From Leucoraja erinacea (Eukaryota), in the NCBI RefSeq assembly GCF_028641065.1, contig NC_073401.1:25420001-25484000 (forward strand): a DNA stretch of 64,000 bases. The letters are read 5' to 3'. Under the pieces are notes generated by a model. It did not search any database and was not told where the DNA came from. It was given only the letters and a program-made list of their open reading frames with translations. The stretch's first letter is position 1; every line of letters begins with the position of its first letter. The translations under genes were made by a program, and so were the position numbers. Positions 21,120 through 61,276 of this stretch are shown in pieces.

Positions 21120-21540
21120 TCATAACCCATCTGTTACCAGAACTCCTTTTAACTTAATTTTGGATATATGTTTACCATTTTTGGGTTTCTTTCTTTTCTT
21201 TCCACCCCTTTCAACATCAGCTTCTTCTGTCTTGAAGCGTTCCTGACCCTCCAGAGTTTCATCAGTAAATTCTGTTTGTTCCAGCTCTTTTACCAGAACT
21301 CGGCACTTCTGTTTGGATTTTCTTGTTGAAACTGCCTCCTCGTCCTCTTTACTATCGTCCCCACCTTCAGTGGCCAGCTTCCTCTTTTTCCTCTTCTTCT
21401 TTTTCCAATTGCCTTTGTTCTCAGCGGGGCCTTCCTCCTGATTTGTCTCTGGCTGATTGCTGACGATGGAACTTTGCCAAAGTAAGTCGTCGCCCGAAAC
21501 CACTGCCTCCTTCAACCGATCCCATTCACTGTCCGACTCA
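21120..21540 (-). CDS. C12orf43: CUSTOS exon 6 (terminal; Lys-rich NLS-like tail)
   Basis: 421 nt; SESDSEWDRLKEAVVSGDDLL (human SEDSDEEWRRCREAAVSASDIL), then KKKKRKKRKL...GKKRKKPK; TGA at 21120-21122. The six exons total 834 nt = 277 aa + stop. Confidence 0.93.
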
Positions 21541-21837
21541 CTGTAATATTCAACACACCATGATTAATGATAGGCTGCATACACTCAGCTAGAATAGAAA
21601 TGTAATGAACCTGTGAGGCTGCATCGGTATACGTATTCAGAATCGTCCCCTATTCCTGGAAGGTATAACTTAGAAGAAAGGTCTCGACCCAAAACGTCAC
21701 CCATTCTCTCCACAGATTCTGCCTGTCCCGTTGAGTTACTCTCTCTCTTAGGTGTAACTTATACATCCAATTCGTCTCCGAACATCAAAGAATAAACTAT
21801 ATATTAATAATCCTTTTTTGGGAGGGAAATCTGATGG

Positions 21838-22250
21838 TTTAGAGATACAGAGTGGAAGCAGGCCCTTCAGTTCACCAAGTCCATGCCGACCACCGATCAC
21901 CCTTACACTAGTTTGGTTTAGTTTAGAGATACAGCGTGGAAACAGGCCCTTCGGCCCACCAAATCCATGCCGACCATTAATCATCCGTATACTCATTTAG
22001 TTTAGTTTGGAGATGCAGCGTGGAAACAGGCCCATCATTCCATGCCAACCAGCAATCACCCACACACTTGTTCTATCCTACACACGAGGGACAATTTACA
22101 CACGCCTTTGGACTGTGGGAGTACCTAGAGAAAACCCACACTGTCACAAGGAGAATGTACATACTCCGTACAGACAACACCAGTAGTTAGGATTGAACTT
22201 AGGTCTCTGGCGCTGTAAGCCAGCAACTTTACCGCTGCGCCACCGTGCCG
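21838..22250 (-). mobile_element. HE1/V-SINE with a triplicated 3' tail segment
   Basis: tttagagatacagcgtggaaacaggcc...catgccgacca unit occurs three times (~21838, ~21922, ~22005) next to one SINE body. Confidence 0.75.
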
Positions 22251-23032
22251 TCCCTGGTTCCATGTCCAACACACTAGGGGCAATTTACAGAAGTCGATTA
22301 ACCTACAAACCTGCCGTCTTTGTTATGCGGATACACCAGCACCCGTAGTCAAGATCGAACCCAGGCTCTCTGCTGTTGTGAGGCAGCAGCTCTGCTGCTG
22401 TACCGCCCTAATATTACCTAATAGATAACCTAGTTCTGGCTAGAGGGCAGGAACATTGCAATTGTGCTTTCTATATGGCCTTCAATTGTTCAATTCTTAG
22501 CCAATGATGAAATAAAATGGAATTCAAACTGGGACACAACATAGAAATATTCAATGTGAAATGTAACTTCAGGGGTCCCATAAACTCAGAGAAGGTACCA
22601 AAAATGATATCCAAATATACTGATCTTTCACTGATGCTTGTCAAAGTTAAAGGATGCATAAGTTCACAAGTTCCACGAGCAGAATTAGGCCATTTGGACA
22701 ATCAAGCCTACTCCACCATTCAATCCATTCTATCATTCCCTCTCAACCCTATTCTGCTGCCTTCTCCCCACAACTCCGGACACCTGTACTAATCGCGAAT
22801 CTATCAATCTCCTCCTTAAAAATACCCACTGAATGGGCCTCCACAGCCTTCTGTGGCAATTAATTCCACAGATTTACCATCCTCTGACTAAAGAATTTCC
22901 TCCTCAAGTTATTTCTAAAGATACATCCTTTTATTCTAAGGCAATGGCCTCTGGTCCTGGACTTGCTGGCCTTGGCTCAGTGGCAAATCTTGACCTGCTA
23001 ACTCAGATGGTCCGCTCTTCAGACTTGAAAGA

Positions 23033-23316
23033 CTTTAGGGATACAGTGCGGAAACAGGCCCTTCGGCCCACTATGTCCGTGCCAACCAGTGAACTATGCT
23101 AGTTCTATGCCCTACATACTAGGAGCAATTTACAGAAGCCAATTAACCTACAAACCTGCATGTCTTTGGGATGTGGGAGGAAAACGGAGCACCCGGAGAA
23201 AACCCACGCGGTCACAGGGAGAACGTACAAACTCTGTACACACAGCACCCGTAGTCAGGATGGAACCCGGGTCTCTGGCGTTGTAAGGCAGCAGCTGTAC
23301 CGCTGTACCACTGTGC
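23033..23316 (-). mobile_element. HE1/V-SINE copy
   Basis: Reverse complement of the V-domain and A/B boxes. Confidence 0.8.
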
Positions 23317-23772
23317 TGCTCCCAAGGCTTCGGCAAACAACTGAGGCTGCCACTTTCATGCAGTGTGGAGGAAGAGTTGTGTTGCAGGCGATGCTGGCTA
23401 CCAGATAAGGTGTTCTTCCAGCCAAGGCTCCATTTACACTCAAATTCCCTCGAGTTGGAAGTTGTACTAGTCTTTCGGAAACCATTTATGCCCCAGTAAG
23501 AATCAACAATCACCAGCCATCCAAATCATTTTAAGTGTTCTCAGCAGGTTTCCCTCTGTGTCAACAGCAACAATTTATTTGACACTCATTATCCATCAGG
23601 TCACAAATGGTGCTAATACAAATTCTGGTCCTGTTTATTTCTCGGTAGGTTTCCTAAACTGCACCCAAAACCACAAGAGTCCTCAGGGTGATTTGCTGCA
23701 ATTAAAGATGTTTCCATCAAAAAACTCTAGAAAACCACTTCCTCTAGCTTCTCCAAACCAGACAATAAAAGG

Positions 23773-23820
<48 letters not shown>
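23773..23820. repeat. (CTAT)12 microsatellite in CUSTOS intron 5
   Basis: Perfect tetranucleotide run. Confidence 0.95.
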
Positions 23821-24962
23821 TGTTCACTTTGTAGGGCAGGAAACAAGACAACACTTGGTTACGATTTGCGCATGTCTGCAGTAAAATGTACTATATCATT
23901 TATTATTTAGATTGCAAGCACTTGTGTGCAAAACGCCCAACAAATTTCCAACAAGGTGCTTTCTTGATTCACACTTGAGGTGAATATGCAAATTATAGCA
24001 CAGTCAGAGGCCCAGTGACCTCAAATGTGGTCATCATTTACATAGTTCTTCCTATGAAAATCTATTCCGTGATTTCACTGTGAATGCAAGAATTGGAGTG
24101 AGGAATTGCAGTTATCAGTGCAGTGTACATTGCCATCTATGTGTGAAGCATGCCCAATGCAGCAAGTTTCAATTGCCGCAGCAAAGTACTCGTATTCTTG
24201 CACTTCCAAGGCAAGAAAAAGCCCCAGGCCACTTTATGATTGCATTACCAACAGGGACTTTGGTAAGCTAAAAGAGGTAGCTTTTGATGTTTTATGTGAG
24301 ATAGAGGCACAAATGAGACTTGGGGGAAGGAAGAGAGTTAAGGTAAGGCATCTGAGGCGGCTCGGTGGCGCAGCGGTAGAGACCCGGATTCCATCCAAAC
24401 TACAAGTGCTGCCTGTACGGAGTTTGTACGTTCTTTCCGTGACAGCGTGGGGTTTTCCTGGGTGCTCCGGTTTCTTCCCACATTCCAAAGTCGTACAGGT
24501 TTGTAGGTTAATTGGCTTTGTTATAGATTGTAAATTTGTCCCTAGTGTGTAGGATTGTATAGGGGATCGCTGGTCGGCGCGGGTTCAGTGGGCCGAAGGG
24601 CCTGTTTCCACAATGTATCTTTAAACTAAACTAAAAAAAAAGAGAAAGGAATAGGTCACCCAGTCCTTGTCATCTGCTCTATCGTTCACTAAGAACGTAG
24701 TTAATTTTCTATCTCAGCTCCCTTTTCCAGCACTATCACCAAGTCCAGAAGGTGGTGACGAGGTCATCAACTTTCTCACATAAGGAAGTGGGGGCTCGTG
24801 AATATCTCAGTGTTACATACGTCTGGAGAGCTGCAAGAACATGAGGAATGAGAACTATAAAATTGAAGCACTGTTTAATTGGGAGTTGATATAAGCCACC
24901 CTGCAAGCAGATTTATGAAACCAAGTTTGAATCTTTTGATAATAAAGTAGTTCAGATAAATA

Positions 24963-25208
24963 CAGGTCCATCACCAATATTCCGGCACCTCCTTTAATCC
25001 GGACAATATTATGAGAGCGCACTTGAAATCCCCCCGGAAGTTCCCCCGAATATGTGGTGCCTAGGCCGGGTGAGGTGGCCGACCTCTACCTCAATGGAAC
25101 ATTTTCATCTGCACATTTTCAGTGGAACCACATAGGCGCTATTTAAATGTTGTTCGCATTAAAGGAGATGTCAGACCACCAGTGGCCAGAATATCAATGC
25201 TGGACCGG
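24963..25208. mobile_element. Degenerate MITE
   Basis: Imperfect TIRs CAGGTCCATCACCAATATTCCGG vs CCGGTCCAGCATTGATATTCTGG. Confidence 0.4.
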
Positions 25209-27070
25209 TGCTATTTTTTTGTAGTGTGGTGGGAACCTCATTTATAAAAAAGGACATTATCGTTGCTCAGAAATTGCACACAATTATGAAAGTGAACACC
25301 AAAGGACAAAAATATTTGCCTCTTCTTCATTCTAATTCACGCTGATGAATTTGCACATTAAATCTTAATTATAATTCTGATCCAACTGAATTGATTTTAT
25401 TCATCACCACAGGGTAACTCTGGGCTAACACGCTGCCCTTATTATCTGTCACTTTGTGCAGTGCTGGATATGAATGTGGAGCAAGTATTTCAAGACTGAC
25501 TGATTCTTCTGATGCTTTGAAATGATGCTTTGATTCATTGACCTTGCTTCAAATGCACAGGAACCCTCCAGAGGTTAGTTATATAATGCCTAACTGATGC
25601 TTCAGTAGCAATCCTCCACAGGGAAAAATACTTAAGCAAGCATGCTAAAATAACAAAATTCTGATGCAATTTTAAATCTATCACTCCACATGGTCCAACG
25701 TACCAGTAACTGTTTGCATTTCATCCTAACTTTAGAAAGTTTAAGATATATTTTCCATACAAAAGCTTAGGGTTCCCATAAAAAATAAACTCTGATTATT
25801 AATAACCACTTTCTGCTATTTGCACTTTATCAGTTTATTTATTCATGTGTGTATATATTTATATCATGGTATATGGACACATTTATCTGTTTTGTAGTAA
25901 ATGCCTACTATTTTCTGTGTGCTTAAGCAAAGCAAGAATTTCATTGTCCTATACAGGGACACATGACAATAAACTCACTTGAACTTCAACTTGAAAAAAC
26001 ATAGGTTTAGTGAGCTCATTCAGAATGAGGAACTGATTGTCGTTTGGACATAGATTTTGATCATTTAACATCCACATTGACAACATATGTAGACAGAGAA
26101 TAAGCATTTTTTTTTAAAAATCCAAGTTCTCACAAAAAAAAATAAAGTTATGCTGTGGCTTTGTCCACTCCACAAGCTTTTAATACATAATTCGTCGACA
26201 TATTTAATTAACCTATATAAAGATCATGCCCCAAATCTCTGTTCTTTGCAACCACAACCAAGGATAAAACTCTGGTATTCTGACCGCTCCCCAGCATAAA
26301 CTGTCCATGAGGCCATTCACTATTATGCTCACTAGAATTTTGACGTTCTTCCTGCAATCATGTGGGTTTTCTCCAGGTGCTCCGGTTTCCTCCCCCATTC
26401 CCAAGATGTACATGTTTGTAGGCTAATTGGCTTCGGTAAAATTGTAAGTTGTCCCCAGTGTGTAGCATAGAGTTAGTGTACGGGGTGATCGCTGGTCACC
26501 ACGTACTCTGTAGGCCGAAGGGCCTGTTTCCATGCTGAATATCTAAAGTAAAATCTAAAGTCTATTTGATGCAACATCTTTTTAAAGCTTATTCTTCAAT
26601 TTGATAGGTAACTACTGATAGAACTCTAGAAAGTGCATTGTCAATCATTTTAACCTCACAAATTAAACTATTCAAAGTTAACTCCTCAAATCCACTGTCC
26701 TGAACACACAATCCAAGCTATTGCAACCGAATGTTGAACATTTCCAGTTTTGTCTGCCATAAATGTTCAGACTCAAAGAAGGGCCTTGACTCAAAATGTT
26801 AGGACTTTGCGTTTCACTATTAAAGGCCAGGGGATCTAGAAACCCAATATTTCCTGGATTCGCATTCTCAGTCGGAAGCTGACAGCCTGGAGTGGAAAAT
26901 AACCACCTCCTTCCCGCTCGCCTCTCTTTCCTCCATGAAACGGCTTCTGTACCTCAGAGTCAGGATTGTGGGCCCAACTATGTTTCTATTCACACAACGT
27001 GATTGTCAAAGAATCAATATTATAATGAATTCTCAGATGAATTCGACATTCCCTGTAAAATAGGACATAC

Positions 27071-27161
27071 CTTGAACTAGGCGGGGGCTTCCATTTAACT
27101 GGAGATGAAGGTTCGACTTTCCTATGATCCTCGGGTATGCTTGTGGTAAATAATCGAAAAC
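27071..27161 (-). CDS. C12orf43: CUSTOS exon 5
   Basis: 91 nt; [31 protein letters not shown] (human GFRLFFTSVP...QPSSSS); AG|GTATGT donor. Confidence 0.93.
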
Positions 27162-27883
27162 CTGGACAACATTGTTAATGCGTCAAATCATGAGACAATC
27201 AAAATAATTCGAAAGAAACAATGGAATTCCATGGGTTTTCTCCGGGTGCTCCAGATTCAACCCACATTCCAAAGACAAACCAAAGGTTTGTAGGTTAATT
27301 GGCTTTGGTGAAATTGTAAATTATAGCTAGTGTGTAGGCTAATGCCAGTATACAGGGACGGCATGGATTCCTGTTTCTGCGCTACATCACCAAACTAAAC
27401 TAAACTAAGCTGGAATAGCCCACTGGAAGGCAGCATCTATGGAGGACATAGATCGGGGATGATTCAGAGTCTGAAGAAGGGTCCTGAAACACCGCCTATC
27501 CATGTCTTCCTAAGATGTCGCCTGACCCGCTGAGTTACTCCAGCACTTTGTGTTTTATCATAAATGGCCAGCAGTACATTTCTAAGTGTGCCACTTGGAA
27601 AGAAACCCAATCGTGGTGGTGTGCCCATTCACCTGATGCCCTTGCCCACCAGGGTGGCACAAGTCACAGGATCGGCATGTGCTGTTGTGGTAATCTGAGC
27701 AAGTAACTGCAATGCATTTTGCAGCTGATACTCACTGAAGTCACTCCGTGCCAGTGGCTGAGGGAATAAATGCTTAAGGTATGTGTAGGAAGGAACTGCA
27801 GATGCTGGTTTACACCAAAGATAGACACAAAATGCTGGAGTAACTCAGCGGGTCAGGCAGCATCTCTGGAGAAAAGGAATAGG

Positions 27884-27937
27884 TGATGGGGGTGGGGCAT
27901 TGTTAGACAATGATGGGGGTGGGGCATTGTTAGACAA
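27884..27937. repeat. 27-bp tandem duplication
   Basis: tgatgggggtggggcattgttagacaa x2. Confidence 0.9.
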
Positions 27938-28304
27938 ACAAAAGGGGCTTTCTTCAGCTAAACTCTATCTGCATTTGCTATCTTCAGTAACTTAAAAAAC
28001 ATATATATATTTTTTTAAATCTGACCACCTTCCACTCTATCTGTAATAATATTTTTACATTTCTAATAGAGTCATAGTCTTACAGAGTGGAAACGGGGCT
28101 AGCAGCCCAACTTGCCCACACTGCCCAACATACCGCATCTACACTAGTCTCACCTGCCTGCCTTTAGCCCAAATCCCTCTAACCCTAAGCCTGTCCATGT
28201 ACCTCTCTATATATTTCTTAAATGTTGCTATAGTATCTGTTAATATCAAAATGCTTTTAGTCCCGATAAATTAATTAGTCATTATAGCCATAATATTTAT
28301 TTAC

Positions 28305-28372
28305 CTTCATCGTCACCATTATCTTCTGCTGGTTGCTTTAGAAGTGGCCCAGAATTGTCAACAGCAATGATA
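28305..28372 (-). CDS. C12orf43: CUSTOS exon 4
   Basis: ttttttacttttcag acceptor, AG|GTAAAT donor; 68 nt; IIAVDNSGPLLKQPAEDNGDDEG; phase 2 to 1 fits neighbours. Confidence 0.88.
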
Positions 28373-30535
28373 CTGAAAAGTAAAAAAAGACACTTCAATT
28401 ATATATTTTATCCGCACATTCGCAATGGAACTACCTTCCACCAAGTACACGATGATGCCCAACCAACGACAGAATATGAAGAGGGCGGTGAATCTGTGGA
28501 ATTCATTGCCACAGACGGCGGTGGAGGCCAAGTCATTGGTTATTTTGGGGGCTTTTATCTCTAGAGCATAGAGGCTGAGAAGTGACCTTATAAAAGATAC
28601 TTACAATAATGATGGAAACAAATAAGGTGAATGGTCACAGTCCTTTTCCCAGGTTAGGGGAGACTCAAACTAGTTTAGTTTAGATACAGTATGGAAACAG
28701 GCCCTTTGACCCACAGAGTCCACCATAACCATCGATCGCCCATTCACACTAGTTCCATTTTCTCATCCACTTCCCACAGGGACAATTTACAGAGACTAAT
28801 TAACCTATAAACCAGCACGTTTTTGGGATGTTGGAAGAAACTGGTGCACCCGGAGGAAACCCACGCAGTCACAGGGGGGGGAAGTGCAAACTCCACACGG
28901 ACAGCACCCAAGGTCAGAATCGAACACAGGTCTTTTGCGTTGTGAGGCAGCAGTTCTATCAACTGCTCCACTGTGCTGTGCCATAGGGGCAACATTTTCA
29001 ACGTGTTGTGGGTACGCGGGCAGGCTACAGCGGAAGTGGCATAGGACAATTACAAAATTTAAAATACATTTGGATAAATTCATATATATAAAACAAAGGG
29101 TTAAGAGGATATGGGCCAACGCCGGCAAATGGGACTAGCTCAGGTAGGCAACTTTGTCGACATGGACAAGCTGGGCCATAGGACCAGTTTCCCTGCTGTA
29201 TAACTCTATGACAGTCGATAAACACTGGGCTTGCCAGCTACGCACAGATCACAAAAATAATCTATTTGTAGGCACGTTCACAGCTTCCTCAGATAAAACC
29301 ATGGGCATAAGCATGAAAAAAGGCTGGAATATTAAATATACATCTGATATTTACTGAAGCTACATGCGAGTGATCTGGTACTTATTCTCTTACTGCCTTA
29401 CACCGGAGAGGTATCAGTTATAGCTGGACAAATTAAGTTAATTTATTGAATTAAAAAATCCAAAAAGCAAGGACTTTACACCTTCAGGGCATAACAATTA
29501 CTACTGCCCCAAACCATTTTGAATTGATTCTGCTATTAAGGTGCTTTGGCGGTTAAAGAATAGTTTTTTTTCTCAGATCTGGGTTATTCGTTTTACAATC
29601 TTGGTTTCACAGTGGCTTTCCTGATGGATTTATGTGTAGTGATGTGGGCTTTGCTAAGAAGAGCACCACTAATTGCCTCTTCTGAAGTGTCTCTGCTGCA
29701 GTACACAGCCTTACTGATTAGCTGAAGTCCTCTGAAGAACCTTCCCTCCACCTTTGGGTAGGTATCTACAGGATTTAATCCCAGCAACAAAGAAAGCACA
29801 GAGATATATTTCCAATTTGGGAGAACTTGTCACTTAGAGGGGAATCTGAAAGTAATGGTATTCTATGCATTTGTTGTCTCCGTACTATCGTTGAAAGTAG
29901 TCTTTTGATCTTCAAGGAATTACCGCACATTGGAGCAGCAGTTGAGTTGCTGCCTTACAGCGGGTTCGATCCTGACTATGGGTGCTGTCTATATGGAGTG
30001 TATGTGGGTTTTTTCCAGGTGCTCCGGTTTCCACCCACACTCCAAAGACGTACAGGTTTGCAGGTTAATTGTCCCTACTGTGAAGAATAGTGTTAGTGTT
30101 CGGGGTGATTGTTGATCGGCGCCTACTTGGTGAGCTGAAGGGCCTGCTTCCGAACTGTCAAAGGTCTACAAGCCTAATGTCTAAAAGAAACAATTAAATG
30201 CAGTGCATTTATGGATATGTACTAATGACATGATATGGTGGAGGGAATTATTGTTTAGATTGCATTTTAAATGACAATTCAGCATGTCACTTTGCTATGA
30301 ATATCATCGAGCTTTGAGTGTGTAACACACATTCGGGCAAGCGGCCAAGATATTAGCACATTTCCAACTAGTACCGATAATATAAGTAGTTAGGTGATCC
30401 AAGCGAAGTGCCATTAACCACAATAACCCAAGTGGCATGTCATTCACCACAGGGTAAGAGTGCAGAATGCTTAGAATACAATGGCTGTTACCCACATCCC
30501 AAGAGCTCAATGCAAGATCAGTCATTTTTTCCTAC

Positions 30536-30634
30536 CCATCTAGCAAGACGCCAAGCTTTTTAGCAACGTGACTTCTGAATTCTGGCGTCGTCTGTAGTTC
30601 ATTTTTGTCGTGCTGCTGATTATCTCCTTTTTGC
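30536..30634 (-). CDS. C12orf43: CUSTOS exon 3
   Basis: 99 nt; [33 protein letters not shown], near-identical to the conserved human motif [22 protein letters not shown]; canonical AG/GT. Confidence 0.95.
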
Positions 30635-30959
30635 CTACAGGGGAGGACAAACCAAGCTTAACATTACCAAAGCGAGAGAAAATTCACCACAAATTCTCTC
30701 TCTGAAGAACATTGTTACAACTGTGAACTCACAGTATGGCTTTGATCATAACTGTATAACAATTATCAAAATGTATACCTAATTATACAATTAATAGTAC
30801 ATTTGTCAACTTCCATTTAATAAAAACTCCTTGAACATAAACAGCCTTAACTCCTAATAATTATTTTACAATATGTTAACAACGTAATTTTCATGTTAGC
30901 TTTAACTTTGACCAGACAGCATTATCGGGGAAAGATGTACTCAGTAATATAAGAGCAGA

Positions 30960-31280
30960 GGGTGCACAGTGGTGCAGCAGTAGAGTTGCTGCCTTACAGC
31001 TCCAGAGACCTGGATTCAATCCTGACTACAGGTATTGTATTTTCTGTACAGAATATGTACGTTCTCCCCGTGACGTGTGTGGGTTTTGTCCGGTTTGTCT
31101 AGTTTCCTCCCACACTTCAAAGATGTACAGGTTTCTAGGTTAATTGGCTTGGCAAAATTGAAAAGTGTCCCTAGTGTGTAGGATAGTGTTAGTGTGCGGG
31201 AATCGCTGGCCGGCGCGGACTTGGTGGCCAAATGGGCCTTTTCCATGCTGTATCTCTAAATTAAACTAAAAAACTAAACT
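30960..31280 (+). mobile_element. HE1/V-SINE copy
   Basis: Head, V-domain and (taaac)n tail. Confidence 0.8.
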
Positions 31281-31966
31281 ACACAGATAATAGGAAAGAT
31301 CTAGCTGTTAATAACATCTGAATGCTCAAAACGAGAAGTTCCAGAACTCAGATTGTACATAGCTGAAACCAGATAGACAGAAAATACTGGAGTACCTCAG
31401 TGGGATTGGCAGCGTCTTTCGAGAGAAAGAATGGATGACGCTTCGGGGTGAGACCCTTCTTCAGACTGGAGTCTGAAGAAGGGTCTCGACCCGAAATGTC
31501 ACCCATTCCTTCATGAAACCATATCTGAGTAAGTTAATGTGGACCTTGTGATGATGGCTCTCCCTCAATGGATGAGAATACTGGACCAGAATACTGGCAG
31601 TTGTATAAATGACATAATCAATAATAAAGACGGGCTTGTGGGGATCACTCGAATACCAGGAACAATTCATTAAAACAATAGGCTCCTGTCATGACCTTAG
31701 TTGTTTGGAAGTCACTATTCCTAGGTCTTCTGAATCATGCATACATTATTGGAAACTTCAGTAAATTTGGTGAACATGTTCCACTGAAATGTATTAAAAA
31801 TGAATAAACTTTACTACGTACGTTACTGTTTTTGATAACCAAACAGTAAAACAAATAAGCACAACTCCTGCAGCAAATAAAGATTCATAAATCCCACATA
31901 CCGTGAATATTGAGTGGAAAATAACATTACAGAATACAGTCAAATGGAAACCTTGCGTTTATATAC

Positions 31967-32018
31967 CTGAGACTTGGTTTTATTGACACTGAAGTCGTCT
32001 TATCTTCATTGGTCCCAG
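31967..32018 (-). CDS. C12orf43: CUSTOS exon 2
   Basis: ttttgtcactag acceptor, AG|GTATAT donor; 52 nt; AGTNEDKTTSVSIKPSLR (human QPSLR); phases fit exons 1 and 3. Confidence 0.85.
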
Positions 32019-32524
32019 CTAGTGACAAAAAATATTTTAAAAAAGGATAATAATTATAATTATGAAAAGGAAGCTTCTCCCAATTCAAAAGTATCTGACA
32101 TGCTTTTGGAATTGAGACCAAATATTAAAAGGGAACGATTCAAAGCAAAACAATCGAAACTAAAATATTTTATGATTTTGAAAGTTACTGAAGAATTATC
32201 TGAAACTAAAGTTTGCAGACAGCACCAAAACAGGTGGAGTCATAGATAATGAAGGTTGTCTGAGGACACTGTGGAACATTGGCTCGGCTGGGAATTTAGG
32301 TGTACAGTGCAGATGGAATTTAATCTAGACAGGAGTGAGGTAATGCACTTTGGGAGTTAAATTATGGCAAAACATACACAGGAAACGAGATGAAAATAAG
32401 AGATCTGTGTACAGAGAGGTCTTGTTTAGTTTACTGTCATGTGTACCGAGGTACAGTGAAAAGCTTTTGTTGCGTGCTAACCAGTCAGCGGAAACACATA
32501 CATCATTACAACGAACAACAGGCA

Positions 32525-32910
32525 ATAGGCAATAGGTGCAGGAGTAGGCCATTCGGCCCTTTGATCCAGCACTGCCATTCAATGTGATCATGGCTGATCA
32601 TCCCCAATCAGTACCCCATTCCTGCCTTCTCCACATATCCTCTGACTCCGCTATCTTTAAGAGCCCAATGTAGCTCTCTCTTGAAAGTATCCAGAGAACC
32701 GGCCTCCACCTTAAGGCATAGAATTCCACAGACTCACAACTCTCTGTGTGAAAAAGTGTTTCCTCATCTCTGTACTAAATGGCTTATCCCTTATTCTTAA
32801 ACTGTGGCCCTGGTTCTGGATTCCCCCAACATCGGGAACATGTTTCTTTCCTCTACCGTGTCCAAACCCTTTATAATCTCATATATTTCAATAAAATCCC
32901 CTCTCATCCT
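32525..32910 (-). mobile_element. CR1 LINE 3' fragment
   Basis: Same subfamily 3' end as 13075-13600. Confidence 0.8.
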
Positions 32911-33239
32911 AAATTCAAGAAGGATTTTGGAATAACCATCCACAGTGTACATGATTAAGGGAATAACGTGAATAACATTTTGTGCAAGATATAGTTCGGT
33001 TAAGTCCGATCAAAGATAGCCCAAGGTTCTCCGATAAGGTAGAGAGTATCTTTAATAAACGTCAATAAACATGCAATTCGTTTTACGGCACGAAAGCAGC
33101 AACTTGTATACAGGATTTTAAGAACTAATGCAAAAACAAGGAGGTATTTACTTTTCACATATTATACAGATTGCAAAGTAGGCCAAGATGGGACCATGCA
33201 ATAAATCCATGTGTAGTTTTATTTAGAGGCCACATATAC

Positions 33240-33342
33240 CTATAGTTCTCTGAGATCCGAGATCCCAAGCCGCCTCTCTGAGGCGGGACCATTCCTCCGC
33301 GTTGTCAGAGTCTGAACTCCGCGCCTCCACGGCCGCCGCCAT
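33240..33342 (-). CDS. C12orf43: CUSTOS (C12orf43) exon 1
   Basis: ATG at 33342 in a CpG-rich patch; [34 protein letters not shown] (cf. human SSSDAEELERCREAA); donor AG|GTATAT; 103 nt, phase 1. Confidence 0.9.
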
Positions 33343-40250: not shown

Positions 40251-40769
40251 TCAGCGTTTCTTTGGAACAGCTTCTACCTTGACCCAGTCTTTGTTCACCT
40301 TCACTGTGTTACAAACTATTTTCTCAAATACATCATACAGGATAGGCTTGGTCGCTTGTGTGAACTCAAACCAATTAGTGATTTCATCGCCTTTGCAGTG
40401 GTATTCTGATAGGTCTTTCATCACGTTAGCTTCAATGCACTCAGCTAAATCCTTCAACTTGAAGAAGGCTCCTCGCTTATTCTTTATGAGTCTGAGTTTC
40501 ATAATGCATTTGAAGATGAGTTTCCGCGGATTTCCGGCCTGGATTTTAGCGTGTTGCAACTGCGGGCAGAGCGTGTGGCCAACTCTATAAAAGGACGACT
40601 GTGCCTCCCCCATGATGTACATGTAAATGGTCGCTCCGTTCTGTTCCAGGAACTCCTCCTCGTCTAACTCGAGTGACGACGACGTGACATCGCGGATGAG
40701 ACGACTCTCCCCGTCACTGAAGTCAAACTCGTCAAAGTCACTGAAGTTGTCACTGACGTTGTTGCCCAT
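40251..40769 (-). CDS. 172-aa protein: MGxxxS N-terminus, acidic linker, T5orf172/MUG113-like (GIY-YIG superfamily) domain
   Basis: Intact non-repetitive ORF; strong Kozak ACGATGG; in-frame TAA at 40782-40784 upstream; splice acceptor cttttcttttcctcgctag at 40821-40822. Pattern YMYIM-x6-FYRVGHT-x-P...IQAGNPRKL...IEANVMKDLSEYH-x-KG...NWFEF resembles the family pattern YxI...YKIGxTxxPxxRxxxLQTGNPxxL...E...L..Y...GEWF. Confidence 0.75.
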   Translation of the reverse strand: MGNNVSDNFSDFDEFDFSDGESRLIRDVTSSSLELDEEEFLEQNGATIYMYIMGEAQSSFYRVGHTLCPQLQHAKIQAGNPRKLIFKCIMKLRLIKNKRGAFFKLKDLAECIEANVMKDLSEYHCKGDEITNWFEFTQATKPILYDVFEKIVCNTVKVNKDWVKVEAVPKKR

Positions 40770-41879
40770 CGTCAACCCAATTTACTTCCCTTGGCGTTGA
40801 CTCCAATTCAGCACTTGAATCTAGCGAGGAAAAGAAAAGTTCTTTAATTCATGTTCACTTGCTGTTTCACATCAGTTACCCATTCTGAACATGCCCTTTA
40901 TCTCTTTATCCCGCGGTCAAAGAAACCTTGCTCAAAAGAACACAAAGTGCTGAAGTTACTTAGCGGGACAGACAGCATCTGAGTTGAGTTTAGTTTATTG
41001 TCACGTGTACAATGAGGTACAGTGAAAATCTTCTGTTGCATGCTAACCAGTGAGCGGAAAGACAATACATAATTACAATTGAGCCATCCACAGTGGACAG
41101 ATGCATGATAAAGAGAATAACATGAATAACGTCTAGTGCAAGATAGTCCAGTAAAGTCCGATCAAAGATAGCCCAAGGGTCTTCAATGATATAGATAGTA
41201 GCTCAGGACCGCTCTCTAGTTGTTTGCCGGATGGTTCATTGCCTGATAGCTGGGAAGAAACTGTCCCTGAATCGGGAGGTGTGCTTTTTCACACTTCTAT
41301 ACCTTTTGCCTGATGGGAGAGGGGAGAAGAGGGTGTGGTTGGGATACGACTCGAAAACATGGATTGGTGACGTTTCTGGTCGGGACCTTTCTTCACACTG
41401 ATTACGCGGGGGATGGAAGAAAGCTGAAAGAAAGAGGCAGGCCAAAGCATGACAGGTATTAGTTCAATGCAGGTGAGTGGGGTTTTGAAAGGCAAGTGGT
41501 TGAACCAAAGGCCAAGTATCAAAGAGGAAGGTGTGAGACAGGATTGAAGTGAAGCCAGAGGAAGGAATGTTGGGGGAGGGGAGAAGAAATAGGTGGTGGT
41601 CCAGGTGGAGCTGAAGGGAGAGGAGAAAGGGGGGGATGTAGGGGAGAAAGAGAAAGGTGTTGTGGAGGGGGGCATTGAGTCAAACCTTGCTCAAAGTTGA
41701 ATGGATTCACTCAAGTGCTGTAATTGAATTGATTTCAGTAATCATTCTGTTAAAGTAGTTTAACATCAAGCAAGACGGCATACTAGAATCCTCTAACCGC
41801 TACATTTAAAATATGTTTTAATATCTGCCTCAGTGTTACTGAACTTGCACTTTGTTTTAATCTTTGGTTTGTCAAACCA

Positions 41880-48448: not shown

Positions 48449-50329
48449 AACCTCAGATATATTCCAGTTGGACCAGGTGATTTATCCATTCGATTTGCAG
48501 CTGGCCTTCTCCGCCTCTTCTTTAGGAATTATAGCCCCCCTCACCCTTAGTCTTGGTGCAAGGTCTTGACCCAAAATATCGAACATCTCTTTGACTCCAC
48601 AGAATCTGTTTGTCTTCTTTTAGTATCTTCTTCCAGGACGAAGGCGAACTCATAAAGTTTTAATTTAGCACCTCATGTCCTCAGCCCGTGGAACACCCGC
48701 GTTTTATCCGTAAAGACCACCCTGACCTCGTTGAATGCCATTTCAACTCGCCTTCCCATTTCCACGCCGACTCAGCTGTCCTCCACCCTCTCCACAGCCA
48801 GGGTGATGAAAAACTCAAACTGGAACGATAACACCTCACATTCCAACTGCTTAGTCTACAACCTATTGGCCTGAACATTTGAGTTTTCCAATTCCAGGTA
48901 ACCCACACTCCCTGTGGTCCTTCCTCCCAACCCGCACCCTCACCCATCTTCATGTCCCCCCTTCCCCTTGATTCCCTTTGTCACCCACTCATACCCACTG
49001 GGTCTCTGTCCCTCCCCCCCCCCCCCCCCCCCAACACTTCCATCTGCTAACCATCACTCCTTATCTAATTCCACATAACACCCACCTTCCTTGCCTATTA
49101 TATTCCCACATCCTCACCCTCTTGCATCTCCTTTTCAGCCTCTGCCTCTTCCTTCACTCTCCCCCTCACCCTACGCAGCTCTCAACTCTACCTATCACCC
49201 ACCAGCCACCCACTCCCAACTCCACCTTCACCCCTCTCTCCCACCTGACACCATCTGTCCATCCTATACCTCCACACCTGGTTCCGCCAATTGCTTACCT
49301 ACCCCGACCCAACATGACCCTGCAAATGGGTGAAGTAAGTGACAAAAACACGTGTTCATACAGTTATATATTTATTAATGTGGAATGCTTTAGTTGCACA
49401 GTAGATTGGATTTTGCATCAACATTACATTGCAAGGCATTTAGAACTCAAACTAACATGAAGACGGTAATTTTGAAGCAATGATTTGCAGAGTGTGTGGA
49501 AGCATTTCTCAGCATGGTGACGGTTGTTCTATGTTTTATATGTGATTTTTTTCCCTGTATGGTGAAGTATTTCACATTGGCCATAGAATAAGTGAGAAGC
49601 CAATGTGGTTTGTGAACTCGTAGGAATCAGATTCATCTGGACCACGCCGGTTTACAGCGCACACCTCTGATCCGAAGTCTGAAGAAGGGTCTCGACCCGA
49701 AATATCACCTATCCAGAGATGCTGCCTGTCCCGCTGAGTTATTCCAGCATTTTGTGTCTACAAATGGTGCGGAGTTGGATATGAAGGAATGTGTCAGATT
49801 TAAACAAACTGCATTTTTGGCCAAGCTGAGAAGGCTGGAATGTGACCAGCTGATCCAACTTGATCGGCTTTATTCATCCGAGATGATCACTCATCTGCGG
49901 CTATTTACAGTGCTGGAGACCTGAGTTTGATCCTGACTACGGGGGCTGTCTATATGAGGTTTGTACGTTCTCCACATGTCCTGCGTGGGTTTTCCCCGGG
50001 TGTTCCGGTTTCCACCCACGTTCCAAATACATAGAGGTTTGTGGGTTAATTAATTGGCTTTAGTAAACTTGTAAATTGTCCCTAGTGTGTGTAGGATGGC
50101 GTTAGCGTGCAGTGATCGTTGGTCAAAGCACTCAGTAGGCGGAAGGGCCTGCTTTCCCCCTGTATCTCGAGACTAAACCAAATGAAGCAGATAGGCAGCA
50201 GAAAGAAGCAAAGTGAACAATATCGAACATTGAACAAATCGACTCATCTCTAGTCTCTTTTAAATCAAGTATTAGAAAATAGGAATTCAAAATATAATTA
50301 AGTTTTAATCTAGTTCAGTCGAGCGCAAA

Positions 50330-50797
50330 TTAACCACCGCGCAGACGAAGCAGGAGCTGGATGGTGGACTGAGACCTGATGTTGTAATCTGAGAGCAACC
50401 GGCCATCTTCCAGTTGTTTGCTCTCAAATGTCAGGCGCTGTTGGTCGGGCGTGACCCCTTCCTGCCTTTGTACTTTTTTTTTAAACTCCCGCACGGACTC
50501 AGTAGGCAGCACGTCGTACGTGGTCGTTTTCCCCTTTTCGTTGAGGAGGAATATCTGCATGCGTTCCTCCTTCTTGATCAGCAGCATGACCGTGGAGTCA
50601 GGGGGGAGGTTGTAGTCCCTCAGTAGGCTGTTGTCCCGAAGCTCCACCTGCTGCCCGTTTTGCACCATCAGGCGCTGTTGGGAACTTGGCACCTGGGTTG
50701 CTTGGTATATTTTCTCCTTGAGAGCCGACACCTGGATGTTAGGGTCGACATCCAGTTGCAAAGATTCGCCGGTGAAATACTTCAACTGGAGTCTCAT
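50330..50797 (-). CDS. ISG15: ISG15-like di-ubiquitin protein, copy 1 (155 aa)
   Basis: Two tandem ubiquitin-like domains ending LRLRGG-stop; [15 protein letters not shown] resembles teleost ISG15; whole CDS in one exon with acceptor tttttccacag at 50810-50811; ISRE promoter upstream. Orthology to mammalian ISG15 is not established. Confidence 0.88.
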
Positions 50798-53332
50798 CTT
50801 GCCAAATCACTGTGGAAAAATGAGAAGAGATTAGAATCCTTTATATCACTTGTGAACGACTTCTTGTTAAATCCACAGTTACACTTAGTTTATTGTCCTG
50901 GATATTTCACATTACTGGAGTACACGTGACAATAAACAAAACTTATTACAAAGCGACTTTTACTTTGAGGTGGGAGGAATGGTGGCAAATTATTTCTCCC
51001 GTTGTGAATTGTCCCTAATGTTTAGGGTAGGATAGTGTGGTAGTGTGCGGGGATCGCAGGTTGTCGAGGACTCGGTGGGCTGAAGGGCCTGTTTTAACGC
51101 TGTATCTCTAAACTGAAACTAAGGTTGGAGAGACTCTTGCACTTCTGGACGTAGGGGGTGAGAGGTAGGGAACATCTGAAGATGAGAAAAGACCAGGAGA
51201 AATCAGGCCTGGCAACAAATGGCCTCAGACAGGATGGTTGCCCCATCGTTGGCTCAGGAAGGTGTGATCAAGACCGATACAATGTGGTGAACTGTGAACA
51301 GGTTAAACAATTAGGGTGGAGGAAGGGGGATGGGGAAGGGGTGTGTGTAGAAGTTACTTAAAATTAGAGAAATCCATATTCATACTAAATATTAATTAAG
51401 CACTATTGACTCTAATTCGATCTTTTTGCACATAAGTTGAATTCAGTCTTTCAATTTCAATATATTAGAAACATTGAAAATAGGTGCAGGAGTAGGCCAT
51501 TTGGCCCTTCGATAATATGATCATGGCTGATCATCCAAAATAAGTAGCCCGTTCTGGCTTTTTCCCCATATCCCTTGATTCCCTTTGCCCCAAGAGCTAA
51601 ATGACTCTCTCCATCCAGTGAATTGGCCTCCACTGCCTTCTGTGGCAGAGAATTCCAGATTCACAACTCTCTCAGTGAGACTCCCAAGGGCGGCTGAGCT
51701 GCAATACTGGGCTTCTGACAGAAGAGGTCCCCCGTGAGCTAAGTTTCGTTTAACACTGCGATTGCATCGCTTCCCGGGAAATGAGAGCAGGCTTTCATCA
51801 GAGTCAATAGTGTTTTTTTGTCATATGTCCCAGATAAAACAACCACATTCTCCCTTTCAGCAGCACAAGAGGATATGTAAACACAGCACTCTGTGAACAA
51901 TGTAATACATGAGAAAAAGTTAATTGTGTGTGTGTGTGATATATATAGTTAGTATACATATATATACACACATAAAAACAAATAAATAATAGTAAATCCG
52001 TGGCAATAAAAAACAAACTGCTGGAGGAACTCAGCTGGTCAGACAGCATCTGTGTAAGCAGAAGGATGGTCCCAAATCAGAGTCCTGGCCCGAGAAGTCA
52101 ACTTCCACAGATGCTGCTTGATCCGCTGAGTTACTGGATACAAAATACTGGAGTAACTCGGCGGGACAAGGCAGCATCTCTGGAGAGAAGGAACGGGCCG
52201 GGACCCTTCTTCAGACTGAATATAGAGGGGTGGGAACTAGAGGTAAGTAAAGGCCAGGACAAAAATCAGGGCGTATTATTAATTGTAAAGACCAACGACA
52301 TTCTGGATCGTATTAAATGGGCCACTCGTGTGGCTTTCTAAACCAGGGCCACCCTTCAACAGGATAAATCATATTCCAGCATTCTCCCCGTCTCGCACAC
52401 GACGACGACCTGCTACGACCAAAATCGGCGCGACTTTGCGATAACTCGCTTTCCACTGTCACAGTGACTGCGCAGTCAATTATTCACTTCAACCTCAGAC
52501 TTCCTGTCAGAACCAGTCGAGTCGCACAAAGAATATCATCTCCGCGGTTTACACCGAAGATAGACAGGAGTGAATCAGCGGGTCAGGCAGCCTCTATAGA
52601 GAAAAGCTCTTGAGGCTAATAATGATTATTTAACCAGCTGTTCCAGTGTCTCCATTGAAGTAGCGGAAACAGGTGTCACTAAACCCGCGAACATAAGAAT
52701 GTGGGAAGCAGGAGGCCATTCGGCCCGCTTCACTATTGGGGATATCACAACTGATATTTTATTTCACCCGCAGATACATAGATACAAAATACTGGAATAA
52801 CTCAGCGGGACGAGGCAGCATCCCTGGGGAGAAGGAACGGGGAGCTTTCTTCAGACTGAAAATAGAGATGAGGGAACTGGAGGTAAGAAAAGGCCAGGAC
52901 AAAAGTCAGGGCGTGCAACAGACGACCAAGGGAGGGCGGAGCCCACAATAGACTATTGTTGTTGGTTAGGGAAGAGGTGATAGCAGAGGGATGCGAGCAG
53001 TGGAGATCTTAGTCATAAAACGGCTAGGGTGTGGGAGAGGGCGGAGAGACAGAATGCCGGGATTATTTGAAATGAGATAAATCGACGATTATACCGCTGG
53101 GTGTTAAACTGCCCAAGTGAAATATGTGGACCTGTTTCTCCAGCACTTTTGTCTACATTCGATTTTCCAGCATCTGCAGCTCCTTCTTCATTACTCGATT
53201 CCAATATTTTTCTGCTAAATCTTCACCTCTCTATGTTATCAGCTGATAATAACATTTCCCACCCCATGCGCAGAATGGCAGTAATTTATTTTTAAATTGT
53301 GAATTTGCCCGTGTTCAGAAGTTTGAACTTAC

Positions 53333-53500
53333 CAACCGAAGCCTCACAATCCTTGCACAAGAAGTCGATGAGAATCTGATTGCAGAATATTCTGTCTCTT
53401 TTTCCAGAGCTCCGCTCTTTGCAAAATCCTCAATCTCCTTGGTTCGCTGGGACACGAGCTTCAATGCACACACCTCTGCCAGCGTCTAGCAGTCGTCTGC
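53333..53500 (-). other. Non-coding exon 1 of ISG15-like copy 1 (5' end approximate)
   Basis: Consensus donor G|GTAAGT at 53333/53332; no ATG in the exon; ~30 nt downstream of a GATAAA TATA-like box. Confidence 0.65.
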
Positions 53501-53519
53501 GCTCCCTCTGGCCGCTTCC

Positions 53520-53696
53520 CTTTGGCTTTATCTCCTCTTCCAAGTTTCTGAACGTCATCGCCACTTCCCCTCCCTCCGAGTATTCACAGGCTGCTCGCTG
53601 CTACAAAACAAACAAAACGTCATCTCAGTTTCGTTTCCGAAAAATAGTCAGCCGCTTTCAGAGCCGCCGGCTATTTCACTTTCGGATTCGTTTCTG
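53520..53696 (-). promoter_or_regulatory. Interferon-responsive promoter of ISG15-like copy 1
   Basis: ISRE CAGTTTCGTTTCC 53626-53638; IRF-E/ISRE TATTTCACTTTCGG 53672-53685 followed by TTCGTTTC; ATF/CRE half-sites ACGTCA at ~53552 and ~53617; GATAAA (- strand) 53527-53532. Confidence 0.8.
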
Positions 53697-53940
53697 ACCC
53701 CCTGAATCCGAAATACAATAACAGCACAGGGAATCGATGCTGCAATCAGCTGTTGATCCACCATCACTGCAAGCACTTCTTGGTTGCAATGTAACTGATT
53801 TTCACTTAAATGCAACATGAAAATAACCGCTCTTCGCATCTGTGGCAACGAACTGCAGATGCTGGTTTAAACCGAAGTTAGTCACAAAAAGGTTGGAGTG
53901 ACTCAGCGGGTCAGACAGCATCTCTGGAGAAAAGGGATAG

Positions 53941-53970
53941 GTGACGTTTCGGGTCGAGACCCTTCTTCAG
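53941..53970 (-). ncRNA. Minimal hammerhead-ribozyme-like motif in a Penelope-type terminal repeat (also 33632-33661 -, 61698-61727 -, 48360-48387 +, 31473-31500 +)
   Basis: CTGAAGA-A-GGGTC-TC-GACCC-GAAA-C-GTC: CUGANGA and GAAA core boxes, helix II, ACGT palindrome, GUC site; helix I only ~2 bp. Confidence 0.55.
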
Positions 53971-54096
53971 ACACTGTATTAAGGTTTCAACTGATTGAGA
54001 AGCTTTTAAGGGGCAGAACTTTCAAGGGTCCCGGGGGATTTGGAGTGAAAATAACACCCATGACGTGCCAGGCTTTGTCCCACCTCCTCCGTTTTA

Positions 54097-55880
54097 AGGT
54101 CATAAGGGATAGTAGAATTAGGCCGTTTGGCCCATTAAGTCTACTCCGCCATTCAATCAAGGCTGATCTATCTTTCCCTCCTAACCCCATTCTCCTGCCT
54201 TCTCCCCATAACCCCTGACACCTGTACTAATCAAGAATCTATCTATCTCTGCCTTAAAAATATCCACTGACTTGGCCTCCACAGCCTTCTGTAGCAAAGA
54301 ATACCACAGATTCATCATCCTATGACTAAATAAATTTCTCCTCATCTCCTTCCTAAAAGATCGTCCTTTAATTCTGAGGATATGACCTCTAGTCCTAGAC
54401 TCTCCCACAAGTGGAAACATCCTCTCCACATCCACTCTATCCAAGCCTTTCACTATTCTATAGGTTTCAATGAAGTCCCCTCTCATTCTCCTAAACTCCA
54501 GCGAGTGCAGGCCCAGTGCCAACAAACGCTCATCATAGGTTAACCCACTCATTCCTGGGATCATTCTTGTAAACCTCTGGACCCTCTCCAGAGCCAGCAC
54601 ATCCTTCCTCAGATATGGTGCCCAGAATTGCTCACAACATTTCAAATGTGGCCTTACCAGCGCCTTATAGAGCCTCAGCATTACATCCCTGTTTTTGTAT
54701 ACAAGCCCTCTTGAAATAAATGGCAGCATTAAGTTTGCTTTCTTTACTGCTGATTAGACTTTCAGATTAACTTTTTGGCAATCCTGCACCAGCACTCCCA
54801 AGTCCCTTTGCACCTCCGATTTCTGGATTCTCACCCCGTTTAGAAAATAATTTCCTACTTCACGCTTTGCTATACTATATCCCACCTGCCACTTCTCTGC
54901 CCACTCTCACAGCCTGTCCAAGTCCTTCTGCAGAGTACCCACCTTCTCTACACTACCTGCCCCTCCACCTATTTTCTACACCACCTGCCCCTCCACCTAT
55001 TTTCGTATCATCTGCAAACTTTGCCACAAAGCCTTCAATCTCTTCGTCCAAATCATTAATATACAATGTGAAAAATAGCAGCCCCAACACCGACCCTTGC
55101 GTAATTCCACTAGTCACTGGCAGCCGTCCAGAAAAAGCCCCCTTTATTGCCACTTTATTGTCTTCTGCCATCCAGCCAACCTGCTTTCCATGCTAGTATC
55201 TGCCCTTTGATACCGTGGGCTTTCAACTTATTTAGCACCTTATCAAAGGCTTTCTGAAAATCTAAATCTGACTCCTTTGACTGTCCAGCTATTTAGTTCT
55301 TCAAAGAATTCCAGCAAATTTGTCAAGTAAGAACTCCCCTACACAAAGCCGAACTGACTTTGGCCTATTTTATCGTGAACTTCTAAGTACTCCGTAACCG
55401 CATCCTTTATAATGGACTCTAAAGTCTTACCAACCACCGAAGTCAGGCCAGCCGACCTATAGTTCCCACTATTCTGCCTAGCTTCCTTTTTGTGCAGCAG
55501 GGCAATTTTCCAATCATTTGGTCCAACTCCTGTCGATATCACTGTCAATGCCTCCACAACCTCCACAGCCACCCTTGGGTACAGTCCATCCTGTCCAGGT
55601 GACATCCACCTTCAGCCCTTTCACCTTCCCAAGCACCTTCTCCCATCGTAATAACAATTCCACTAACTCCCACCCCCTGACTCTCTCGAATTTCAGGCCC
55701 GTTGCCGGTGTATTCCACTGTGAAGACTGATGCAAAAAAGTTATTCAGCTCCTCTGCCATTTCTTTATTCCCCATTATCACTTCTCCTGCATCAATCTCC
55801 AGTGGTCCAACGTCCACTCTTGCCTTTTGTTCTCTTTATATAACTGAAGAAACTCTTGCTGTCCTCTTTTATATTATTTC
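54097..55880 (-). mobile_element. CR1 LINE RT region, degenerate (duplicated at ~61855-63640)
   Basis: NYRSAGLTSVVGKTLESII, SGITQGSVLGLLFFTLYINDL, KFADDTKIGG, LYKALVRPHL, RRMRGDFIETYRI. Confidence 0.92.
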
Positions 55881-56099
55881 CCAACTTTTTTTCCACCCGA
55901 CACCAATCAGTCTGACAAAGGGCCCAGCCCCGAAACGTCATCTGTCTATTCTCGCCACTGATGCTGCCTGACCCGCTGAGTTCCACCGGCATCCTGGTGT
56001 TTTGAACACTTTCCCACAGCTTTGCCCCTCACCCCAGCCACAGTAACAAAGCAGGACAAGCAACATCTCTGCAGAGAAGGGATGGGTGATATTTCGGAT

Positions 56100-58366: not shown

Positions 58367-58834
58367 TTAACCACCGCGCAGACGAAGCAGGAGCTGGATG
58401 GTGGACTGAGACGTGATGTTGTAATCTGAGAGCAACCGGCCATCTTCCAGTTGATTGCTCCCAAATGTCAGGCGCTGTTGGTCGGGCGTGACCCCTTCCT
58501 GCCTTTGTACTTTTTGTTTAAACTCCCGCACGGACTCAGAAGGCAGCACGTCGTACGTGGTCATTTTCCCCTTGTCATTGCGGAGGAATATCTGCATGCG
58601 TTCCTCCTTCCTGATCAGCAGCATGACCGAGGAGTCAGGGGGGAGGTTGTAGTCCCTCAGCCGGCTGTTGTCCCGAAGCTCCACCTGCTGCCCGTTTTGC
58701 ACCATCAGGCGCTGTTGGGAACTTGGCACCTGGGTTGCTTGGTATATTTTCTCCTTGAGAGCCGACACCTGGATGTTAGGGTCGACATCCATTTGCAAAG
58801 ACTCGCCGGTCAAATACTTCAACTGGAGTCTCAT
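58367..58834 (-). CDS. ISG15: ISG15-like di-ubiquitin protein, copy 2 (155 aa)
   Basis: 142/155 aa identical to copy 1; LRLRGG-stop; acceptor at 58847-58848. Confidence 0.88.
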
Positions 58835-60089: not shown

Positions 60090-60120
<31 letters not shown>

Positions 60121-61257: not shown

Positions 61258-61276
61258 GCTCCCTCTGGCCGCTTCC

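Follow-up and report, generated by a model that had tools for sequence, protein, structure and literature searches.

What does a phage-type nuclease fold do in a vertebrate genome, at the edge of a cluster of antiviral genes? The question is raised by a 172-amino-acid open reading frame (ORF) on the minus strand of C25:25,420,001-25,484,000 of the Leucoraja erinacea genome, the 64,000-nucleotide stretch analysed here and called the window. A reading made from the letters alone (below, the sequence-only reading) had taken it for an intact host gene with a T5orf172-type GIY-YIG domain, virus-derived or anciently retained, binding nucleic acid and possibly antiviral. Our preferred reading, held at a rough probability of 0.4, is that it is a single-copy host gene for a nucleic-acid-binding pseudo-nuclease that would serve the innate antiviral programme of the neighbouring ISG15-like/OASL-like cluster. 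The gene itself consists of the following parts.

40251..40769, minus strand: single coding exon, the 172-amino-acid ORF including its stop (from the ORF list and translation, the orthologues and the single copy)
40770..40820, minus strand: 51 nucleotides of 5' untranslated region in the coding exon, in-frame stop at 40784-40782 (from the sequence)
40821..40838, minus strand: predicted splice acceptor, pyrimidine tract plus AG (from the sequence)

The ATG lies at 40769 and the ORF ends at 40251, giving 172 amino acids plus the stop, within a stop-to-stop frame that starts at 40781. The acceptor AG occupies 40822-40821, so that the exon starts at base 40820, exactly 51 nucleotides before the ATG; around this ATG, position -3 is A and position +4 is G. 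The intact ORF, strong Kozak context, upstream in-frame stop and acceptor described by the sequence-only reading, and all the motifs it quoted from the translation, were found again in the sequence. Length alone is weak evidence for a gene because 30 base shuffles of the window give 0.2 ATG-initiated ORFs of at least 172 amino acids per window by chance; conservation among orthologues is the stronger evidence. The observed/expected CpG ratio was 1.13 in the 5' half of the ORF (40510-40769) against 0.47 for the whole window and 0.70 for the ISG15-like exons; this half is possibly unmethylated in the germ line or close to an internal promoter. A run search listed six sequencing data sets from two studies that contain the stretch, none recorded as RNA, which speaks neither for nor against expression. 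No canonical AATAAA was found within 2.4 kilobases (kb) of the stop, the nearest being at 37776; weaker variants of the polyadenylation signal occur past the stop at 40119-39993.

The orthologue search yielded 18 candidates, of which three passed: a Logan protein 98% identical to the window protein, a full-length orthologue of 172 amino acids in the bamboo shark Chiloscyllium punctatum (GCC36775.1; 62% identity, E 1e-66) and a partial model in the cloudy catshark Scyliorhinus torazame (GCB74906.1; 60% identity over 83% of the query, E 5e-55). Disruption of the ORF in related species had been named as grounds for giving up the idea of a gene; it is open over its full length in Chiloscyllium and over the partial model in S. 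torazame. A protein search of the skate's own genome found one locus, as did a DNA search with an 881-nucleotide query in which only the final ~60 nucleotides were repetitive. With two relatives from the profile search below (P0007 and P0018) as queries, no second family member was found in this genome, which gives a lower bound; searches of the genome with PF10544 and PF13455 gave 0 matches, again a lower bound as these profiles miss the 172-amino-acid gene too. One match on C3 (E 0.17, three stops) was taken as noise. Any terminal repeats in the flanks were at the level of chance or were common interspersed pieces. Decayed remnants near 48700-48880 on the plus strand, which by their motif resemble a Penelope endonuclease tail, do not align with the protein, and a regular expression for an intact Penelope motif found none. 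The ORF is thus one copy and not a member of a multicopy transposon family, its separation from the Penelope GIY-YIG tail stands, and with an intact frame and orthologues in sharks it is very probably a real host gene.

The family of the protein emerges from profiles of its relatives. The window protein itself had no match at E<=10 in a Pfam scan and no useful match in PHROGs, and PDB sequence searches with two family alignments gave 0 matches at E<=10. The Chiloscyllium orthologue matched PF10544 (T5orf172) at E 0.008 with 17.1 bits, under the gathering cut-off of 20, and the S. torazame orthologue had 0 matches to the Pfam T5orf172/MUG113 profiles, so the gathering cut-offs of PF10544 and PF13455 were reached by neither the window protein nor either orthologue. 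A four-row orthologue profile, run against 1.84 billion protein representatives, returned 11 matches at E<=0.001, namely the self cluster and ten others, and all ten others pass the Pfam cut-offs for T5orf172/MUG113. The four that carry a host name are all from sharks (S. canicula, S. torazame and two from Mustelus asterias; E 6e-10 to 9e-4), and hhalign joined the orthologue family to the shark relative P0007 at 95% (E 2e-8). In the reverse direction, a profile of 17 phage-type domains alone picked out the 172-amino-acid ORF (E 1.6e-9, 34.0 bits) and no other of the 1,395 window ORFs; these domains come from 23 loci on viral and metagenome contigs, minus six identical duplicates, and were retrieved by GNPR- or GGGTEW-type patterns, a selection that tilts the result toward a match, and for six from metagenome contigs the name phage-type is our own label. 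A profile of 21 non-phage-type domains scored the ORF far higher (E 2.3e-18, 62.5 bits). An ESM Atlas feature search gave T5orf172/MUG113 clusters at 0.92-0.93, the closest look-alikes being viral or bacterial. The HMMER/Pfam check proposed by the sequence-only reading thus failed for the window protein and succeeded for its profile relatives; membership of T5orf172/MUG113 follows by transitive homology to proteins above the cut-offs, and the protein is apparently an undescribed vertebrate variant of the family.

The predicted structure points the same way.

40350..40631, minus strand: T5orf172/MUG113-type GIY-YIG domain, approximately residues 47-140 (from the orthologue match to PF10544 at E 0.008, profiles, model and fold searches)

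An AlphaFold model from 35 alignment rows (mean predicted local distance difference test score, pLDDT, 78.6; predicted template modelling score 0.74) places strands at 47-55, 60-66, 84-94 and 133-135 and helices at 69-77 and 101-119, in the order beta-beta-alpha-beta-alpha-beta, followed by a C-terminal helix at 141-158. This is the GIY-YIG fold of about 100 amino acids, in a predicted and partly circular model. Structural searches in BFVD gave 111 matches at E<=1e-3, with T5orf172, MUG113 and Bro proteins at the top and ICP1 ORF88 at rank 48 (E 1.9e-4). Among solved structures, the top three in VIA were HIGLE (Z 7.7, root-mean-square deviation 3.0, 98 residues aligned) and Slx1 (Z 7.3 and 6.8), and ranks 1-7 of the Foldseek search of PDB were all Slx1. 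The model almost certainly captures a T5orf172 fold, and relatives above the Pfam cut-offs, the reciprocal phage-type profile and the fold matches together bear out the domain assignment of the sequence-only reading.

What defines the GIY-YIG superfamily is the pair of GIY and YIG motifs together with an Arg at the centre and a Glu toward the C-terminus (PMC1564403). The T5orf172 nuclease Gp88/Odn retains Arg and Glu, of which the Glu is required (PMC8263062; PMC10448857). The corresponding positions of the window protein were located in a 41-domain alignment: three domains of the orthologues, the 17 of phage type and 21 taken from 16 other proteins; nine of 28 proteins had been excluded as near-duplicates or fragments.

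40554..40556, minus strand: Gln72, in the column of the catalytic Arg (domain alignment)
40431..40433, minus strand: Glu113, conserved helix-2 Glu, putatively metal-binding (domain alignment)
40374..40376, minus strand: Asn132, in the column of the EWF Glu (domain alignment)
40443..40487, minus strand: family-specific basic insertion of ~11-15 residues before helix 2, approximately residues 95-109 (alignments)
40638..40769, minus strand: acidic, low-confidence N-terminal region, residues 1-44 (model and sequence)
40254..40265, minus strand: C-terminal PKKR (invariant in three of three orthologues)

Much of the site is retained: Tyr51, Gly64, the run Gln77-x-Gly79-Asn80-Pro81-Arg82, Glu113 and Trp133. 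The GIY/YIG hairpin is present, with Tyr in the Tyr51 column and Gly in the Gly64 column of all 17 phage-type domains. Glu fills the Glu113 column in all three orthologues, in all 17 phage-type domains and in 17 of the 21 others, and Glu113 may be the equivalent of the catalytic metal-binding Glu. The central Arg expected of an active GIY-YIG nuclease is missing: its column reads Gln/Lys/Gln in the three orthologues (Gln72 in the window protein), where all 17 phage-type domains and 17 of the 21 others have Arg, making 34 of the 38 non-orthologue domains. In the EWF Glu column the orthologues read Asn/Lys/Asn, and Glu stands there in all 17 phage-type domains and 16 of the 21 others. Because both residues are replaced, the protein is probably a pseudo-nuclease, catalytically dead or very weak, and for the same reason the word nuclease is doubtful for it and nucleic-acid-binding fits. 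The T5orf172 motif order of the sequence-only reading stands as regards the quoted motifs and falls short at two degenerate catalytic columns.

Charge is unevenly distributed along the protein. Residues 62-110 hold 12 Lys/Arg against two Asp/Glu, a composition that may reflect nucleic-acid binding, and in residues 95-111, which take in the basic insertion, 11 of 17 positions are identical across all three orthologues. Among the folded parts, conservation is lowest in the second half of the domain, where 9 of 29 positions are identical. Residues 1-44 hold 14 Asp/Glu and two Lys/Arg and open with MGxxxS in two of the three orthologues, the third model being partial; this start is a myristoylation-type motif and the PKKR end is nuclear-localisation-like. 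Under the preferred reading, the single coding exon would be joined by splicing to a non-coding first exon; residues 62-110, family-specific insertion included, would form a basic face that grips DNA or RNA; the retained Tyr51/Glu113 pocket would be unable to complete hydrolysis; and the acidic N-terminal tail with MGxxxS, together with PKKR, would set localisation or autoinhibition. The protein would then be no destroyer but a binder, a sensor or a decoy.

The antiviral part of the reading comes from the neighbourhood.

21123..33342, minus strand: CUSTOS-like gene, last exon 21123-21563 and likely ATG at 33342 (PF23999 match below cut-off, CpG-rich first exon, HNF1-family gene beyond)
50330..50797, minus strand: ISG15-like di-ubiquitin gene, copy 1 (domain scan, tandem duplication)
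58367..58834, minus strand: ISG15-like di-ubiquitin gene, copy 2 (domain scan, tandem duplication)

The locus runs in the order HNF1-family gene (25.326-25.345 Mb), CUSTOS-like gene, 172-amino-acid gene, two ISG15-like genes and four OAS genes, the last on the plus strand just past the window (C25:25,488,000-25,529,000) and ~28 kb from the 172-amino-acid gene. The position between CUSTOS and the ISG15-like genes on one strand is as had been proposed, with the Pfam score of CUSTOS under its cut-off, and the antiviral cluster whose edge the gene occupies is bigger than the sequence-only reading saw, as the OAS genes are beyond the window. Upstream of the ISG15-like copies lie sites of the interferon-stimulated response element (ISRE) and interferon regulatory factor (IRF) types, at 53627/53683 and 61384/61440. 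The argument for an antiviral role is one of genomic position only, and an immune function is offered tentatively.

Several observations weigh against the preferred reading. As to regulation, no canonical ISRE was found near the 172-amino-acid gene. The sole upstream ISRE-like match, at 43418, falls within what looks like the remnant of a repeat, and the window has 16 such relaxed matches in all; no paralogous copy of the ISG15-like promoter was found upstream beyond common repeats. CUSTOS, the other neighbour, is not known to be an interferon-stimulated gene, and strong conservation fits a housekeeping role equally with that of an arms-race gene. As to the domain, the Pfam silence of the window protein is joined by a pLDDT of only 36 when AlphaFold was given four rows, by the T5orf172 rows in the 35-row alignment, which make the fold match partly circular, by VIA Z scores under 8, in the range of common arrangements, and by the Foldseek search of PDB, with no match at E<=0.001 and a best E of 0.048. 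As to catalysis, positions 71 and 73 are Arg in the two shark orthologues, and position 75, one helical turn on, is Lys or Arg in each of the three; either may substitute for the lost Arg. As to descent, a host name is lacking for six of the ten nearest relatives, so the animal lineage is a putative one, and in the tree of this short domain 12 of 38 inner branches are starred and the bootstrap is not settled, too little to fix the deep order or that lineage.

The regulatory points favour a different role for the same conserved pseudo-nuclease, in genome maintenance, the germline or development, with its place at the cluster edge incidental. The lack of a clean ISRE near the exon, the CUSTOS neighbour and the PKKR tail would all suit such a role, as would a conserved single copy, unlike the duplicated ISG15-like and OAS neighbours; ANKLE2 Unc-1 offers a precedent as an animal GIY-YIG-like fold without nuclease activity (PMC13179284). 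Against it, the gene lies on the same strand as, and directly downstream of, two ISG15-like genes that share its exon layout, with the ATG just behind an acceptor, four OAS genes are close by, and the characterised T5orf172 proteins work in virus-parasite conflicts (PMC8263062), and we consider a non-immune role somewhat unlikely. Another possibility is that the exon lacks its own promoter and depends on that of ISG15-like copy 1, which is ISRE-driven, as an alternative terminal exon or a read-through product. This would be compatible with an immune function and is suggested by the shared strand, a distance of 9.6 kb downstream with the exon's own acceptor and ATG, the ISRE-type and IRF-type sites of that copy, and the failure to find a first exon for the 172-amino-acid gene. 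Against it, the ~9 kb of partly unique upstream sequence could hold a promoter; we consider it very unlikely.

The basic residues near position 72 raise the matter of an active nuclease whose catalytic residue has moved, to Lys/Arg75 or to Arg71/73 in sharks, and which would target viral or mobile DNA. The retained remainder of the site agrees with this, position 75 is basic in all three orthologues and mostly acidic or small in relatives, and atypical residues at core GIY-YIG positions do occur (PMC8263062). Set against this, the two changed columns are near-invariant elsewhere and differ between the orthologues (Q/K/Q and N/K/N), hinting at relaxed constraint, Arg is absent from residues 71-73 of the window protein, and the second half of the domain is poorly conserved; an active nuclease is decidedly unlikely. 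If a large DNA virus had recently donated the gene, or a transposon had brought it as cargo, this would explain the intronless coding region, the CpG-rich 5' half, the viral or bacterial nature of the closest Atlas and BFVD look-alikes and the three nearest tree neighbours without a named host. The gene is nevertheless single-copy and without convincing terminal repeats, the window ORF lists hold no other viral-looking ORF, and the gene is common to distant chondrichthyans. The better score of the non-phage-type profile (62.5 against 34.0 bits) and the lack of any relative in IMG/VR, where the orthologue alignment gave 159 pattern matches and 0 relatives among viral contigs, point the same way. 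Recent capture is not supported because the nearest named relatives are multicopy shark proteins with mostly intact sites; it is highly improbable, and the word recent is already largely refuted.

In the tree, the three orthologues form a starred clade with a stem of 1.32 and tips of 0-0.4, which groups at 94/93 with P0018, P0020 and P0021, proteins without a named host, while the named shark paralogues branch separately. By the approximately unbiased test, a single clade for all 24 non-phage-type domains was neither rejected (p 0.42) nor shown. The family alignment gave 15 pattern matches and 0 relatives in prokaryote genome contigs, and P0018 as query gave no match among GenBank phages. Of the two origins allowed by the sequence-only reading, a distinct viral capture is disfavoured by the shark relatives and the IMG/VR result, and early animal residence or an old transfer appears to fit better. 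Most likely, animals already carried the T5orf172 lineage from which the gene descends, one with paralogues that have expanded and mostly kept their catalytic site in three named sharks; the gene would have changed fast once and then been conserved. A T5orf172-annotated gene also marks a cell type in the sponge Spongilla (PMC10176882).

The named shark relatives are LOC119956361 of S. canicula, XP_072348556 of S. torazame and LOC144486569/570 of Mustelus asterias. Sharks hold a separate, multicopy, tandem-domain T5orf172 family with Arg mostly intact (P0007, P0019 and P0024-P0028), with at least five models in Mustelus and three tandem domains in S. torazame; none was found in the skate genome. 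Such a pattern fits a fast-evolving defence family. Two related T5orf172 proteins in ENA, P0011 and P0012, have, by eye, a hydrophobic N-terminus resembling a signal peptide, which suggests that the same clade may include secreted nucleases.

Compared with known systems, the protein shares with the T5orf172/MUG113 proteins of ICP1 (Gp88/Odn and the homing endonucleases) the fold order, the strand-1 Tyr, the strand-2 K/R-x-G, QxGNPR, the helix-2 Glu and the WF motif. Unlike them, it has lost the Arg and the EWF Glu, has no fused DNA-targeting domain, carries the basic insertion and acidic N-terminal tail, and is encoded by a chromosomal single-copy vertebrate gene with a predicted splice acceptor. 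With the uncharacterised shark T5orf172 proteins it shares the host group and a GNPRxL core, and they are its nearest named relatives; they differ in being multicopy or tandem-domain, mostly with Arg and GGGTEWF. SLX1 and HIGLE are the best solved-structure matches of the model, and humans have just two annotated GIY-YIG proteins, SLX1A and ANKLE1 (PMC13179284). The window protein belongs to a different branch from SLX1, ANKLE1 and HIGLE (6-13% identity), without the catalytic Arg or RING, LEM or ankyrin domains. ANKLE2 Unc-1 is a precedent only, as a non-enzymatic GIY-YIG-like animal domain (PMC13179284); it lacks the motifs altogether and is part of a large scaffold, whereas the window protein keeps most motifs and stands alone. 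Bro proteins of baculoviruses and ascoviruses and T5orf172 proteins of giant viruses supply many of the top BFVD matches, at 9-20% identity and unlike the window protein, which has neither Bro-N nor KilA-N; none appeared at E<=0.001 by sequence profile, unless among the matches without a named host.

No description of a vertebrate T5orf172 gene was found in the literature listings and cited papers covered, nor any match there for GIY-YIG, shark and interferon together. Database records read hypothetical or uncharacterized, and the shark paralogues carry automatic Pfam labels. The gene would add a third, phage-type GIY-YIG branch, kept as a conserved host gene in cartilaginous fishes, to the few that vertebrates are thought to have (PMC13179284), alongside a wider uncharacterised T5orf172 family in sharks. 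If interferon-induced, it would represent a new class of effector or sensor and would link a nuclease family of phage-satellite conflicts to vertebrate immunity; if not immune, it would be a new pseudo-nuclease of modest interest. A broader possibility, which we regard as unlikely, is that T5orf172 nucleases form an unrecognised innate arm of chondrichthyans, made up of active, expanding tandem-domain members in sharks and a conserved, interferon-induced dead member within the ISG15-OASL cluster, the 172-amino-acid protein, which would sense or sequester foreign nucleic acid or regulate its active paralogues. Were this so, a further prokaryotic conflict nuclease fold would serve in the antiviral defence of vertebrates, in the place where OASL lies in humans. 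Direct tests of these ideas are within reach, as the protein is small, the locus is defined and dead and intact paralogues form a natural pair.

Around the gene, the last exon of the CUSTOS-like gene matched PF23999 at E 0.0012 with 18.8 bits, under the cut-off of 27.4. Its likely first exon, with the ATG at 33342, has no Pfam match and is presumed from resemblance. P2X genes do not lie at this locus. The human order HNF1A-C12orf43-OASL matches that of the window locus. No report of OASL-ISG15 synteny in cartilaginous fish was found in the literature covered. A recent tandem duplication of ~7.8-8.1 kb with 94-99% identity occupies 48803-64000 and includes the ISG15-like gene, the ISRE region and remnants of long interspersed nuclear elements. 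A tandem ubiquitin-like exon follows three of the four OAS genes, of which the first copy was confirmed. The OAS and ISG15-like genes stand head-to-head, the OAS tails are ~40% identical to the ISG15-like protein, and the first of them has an LRVRGG motif followed by an extension. This suggests that the OASL tail may have arisen from a neighbouring ISG15-like exon; the tandem domain of avian OASL also resembles ISG15 (PMC8764230). Further OAS loci were seen at C7:979,000-986,000, with a ubiquitin-like tail, and at C3:100.23 Mb, with stops in the matched stretch.

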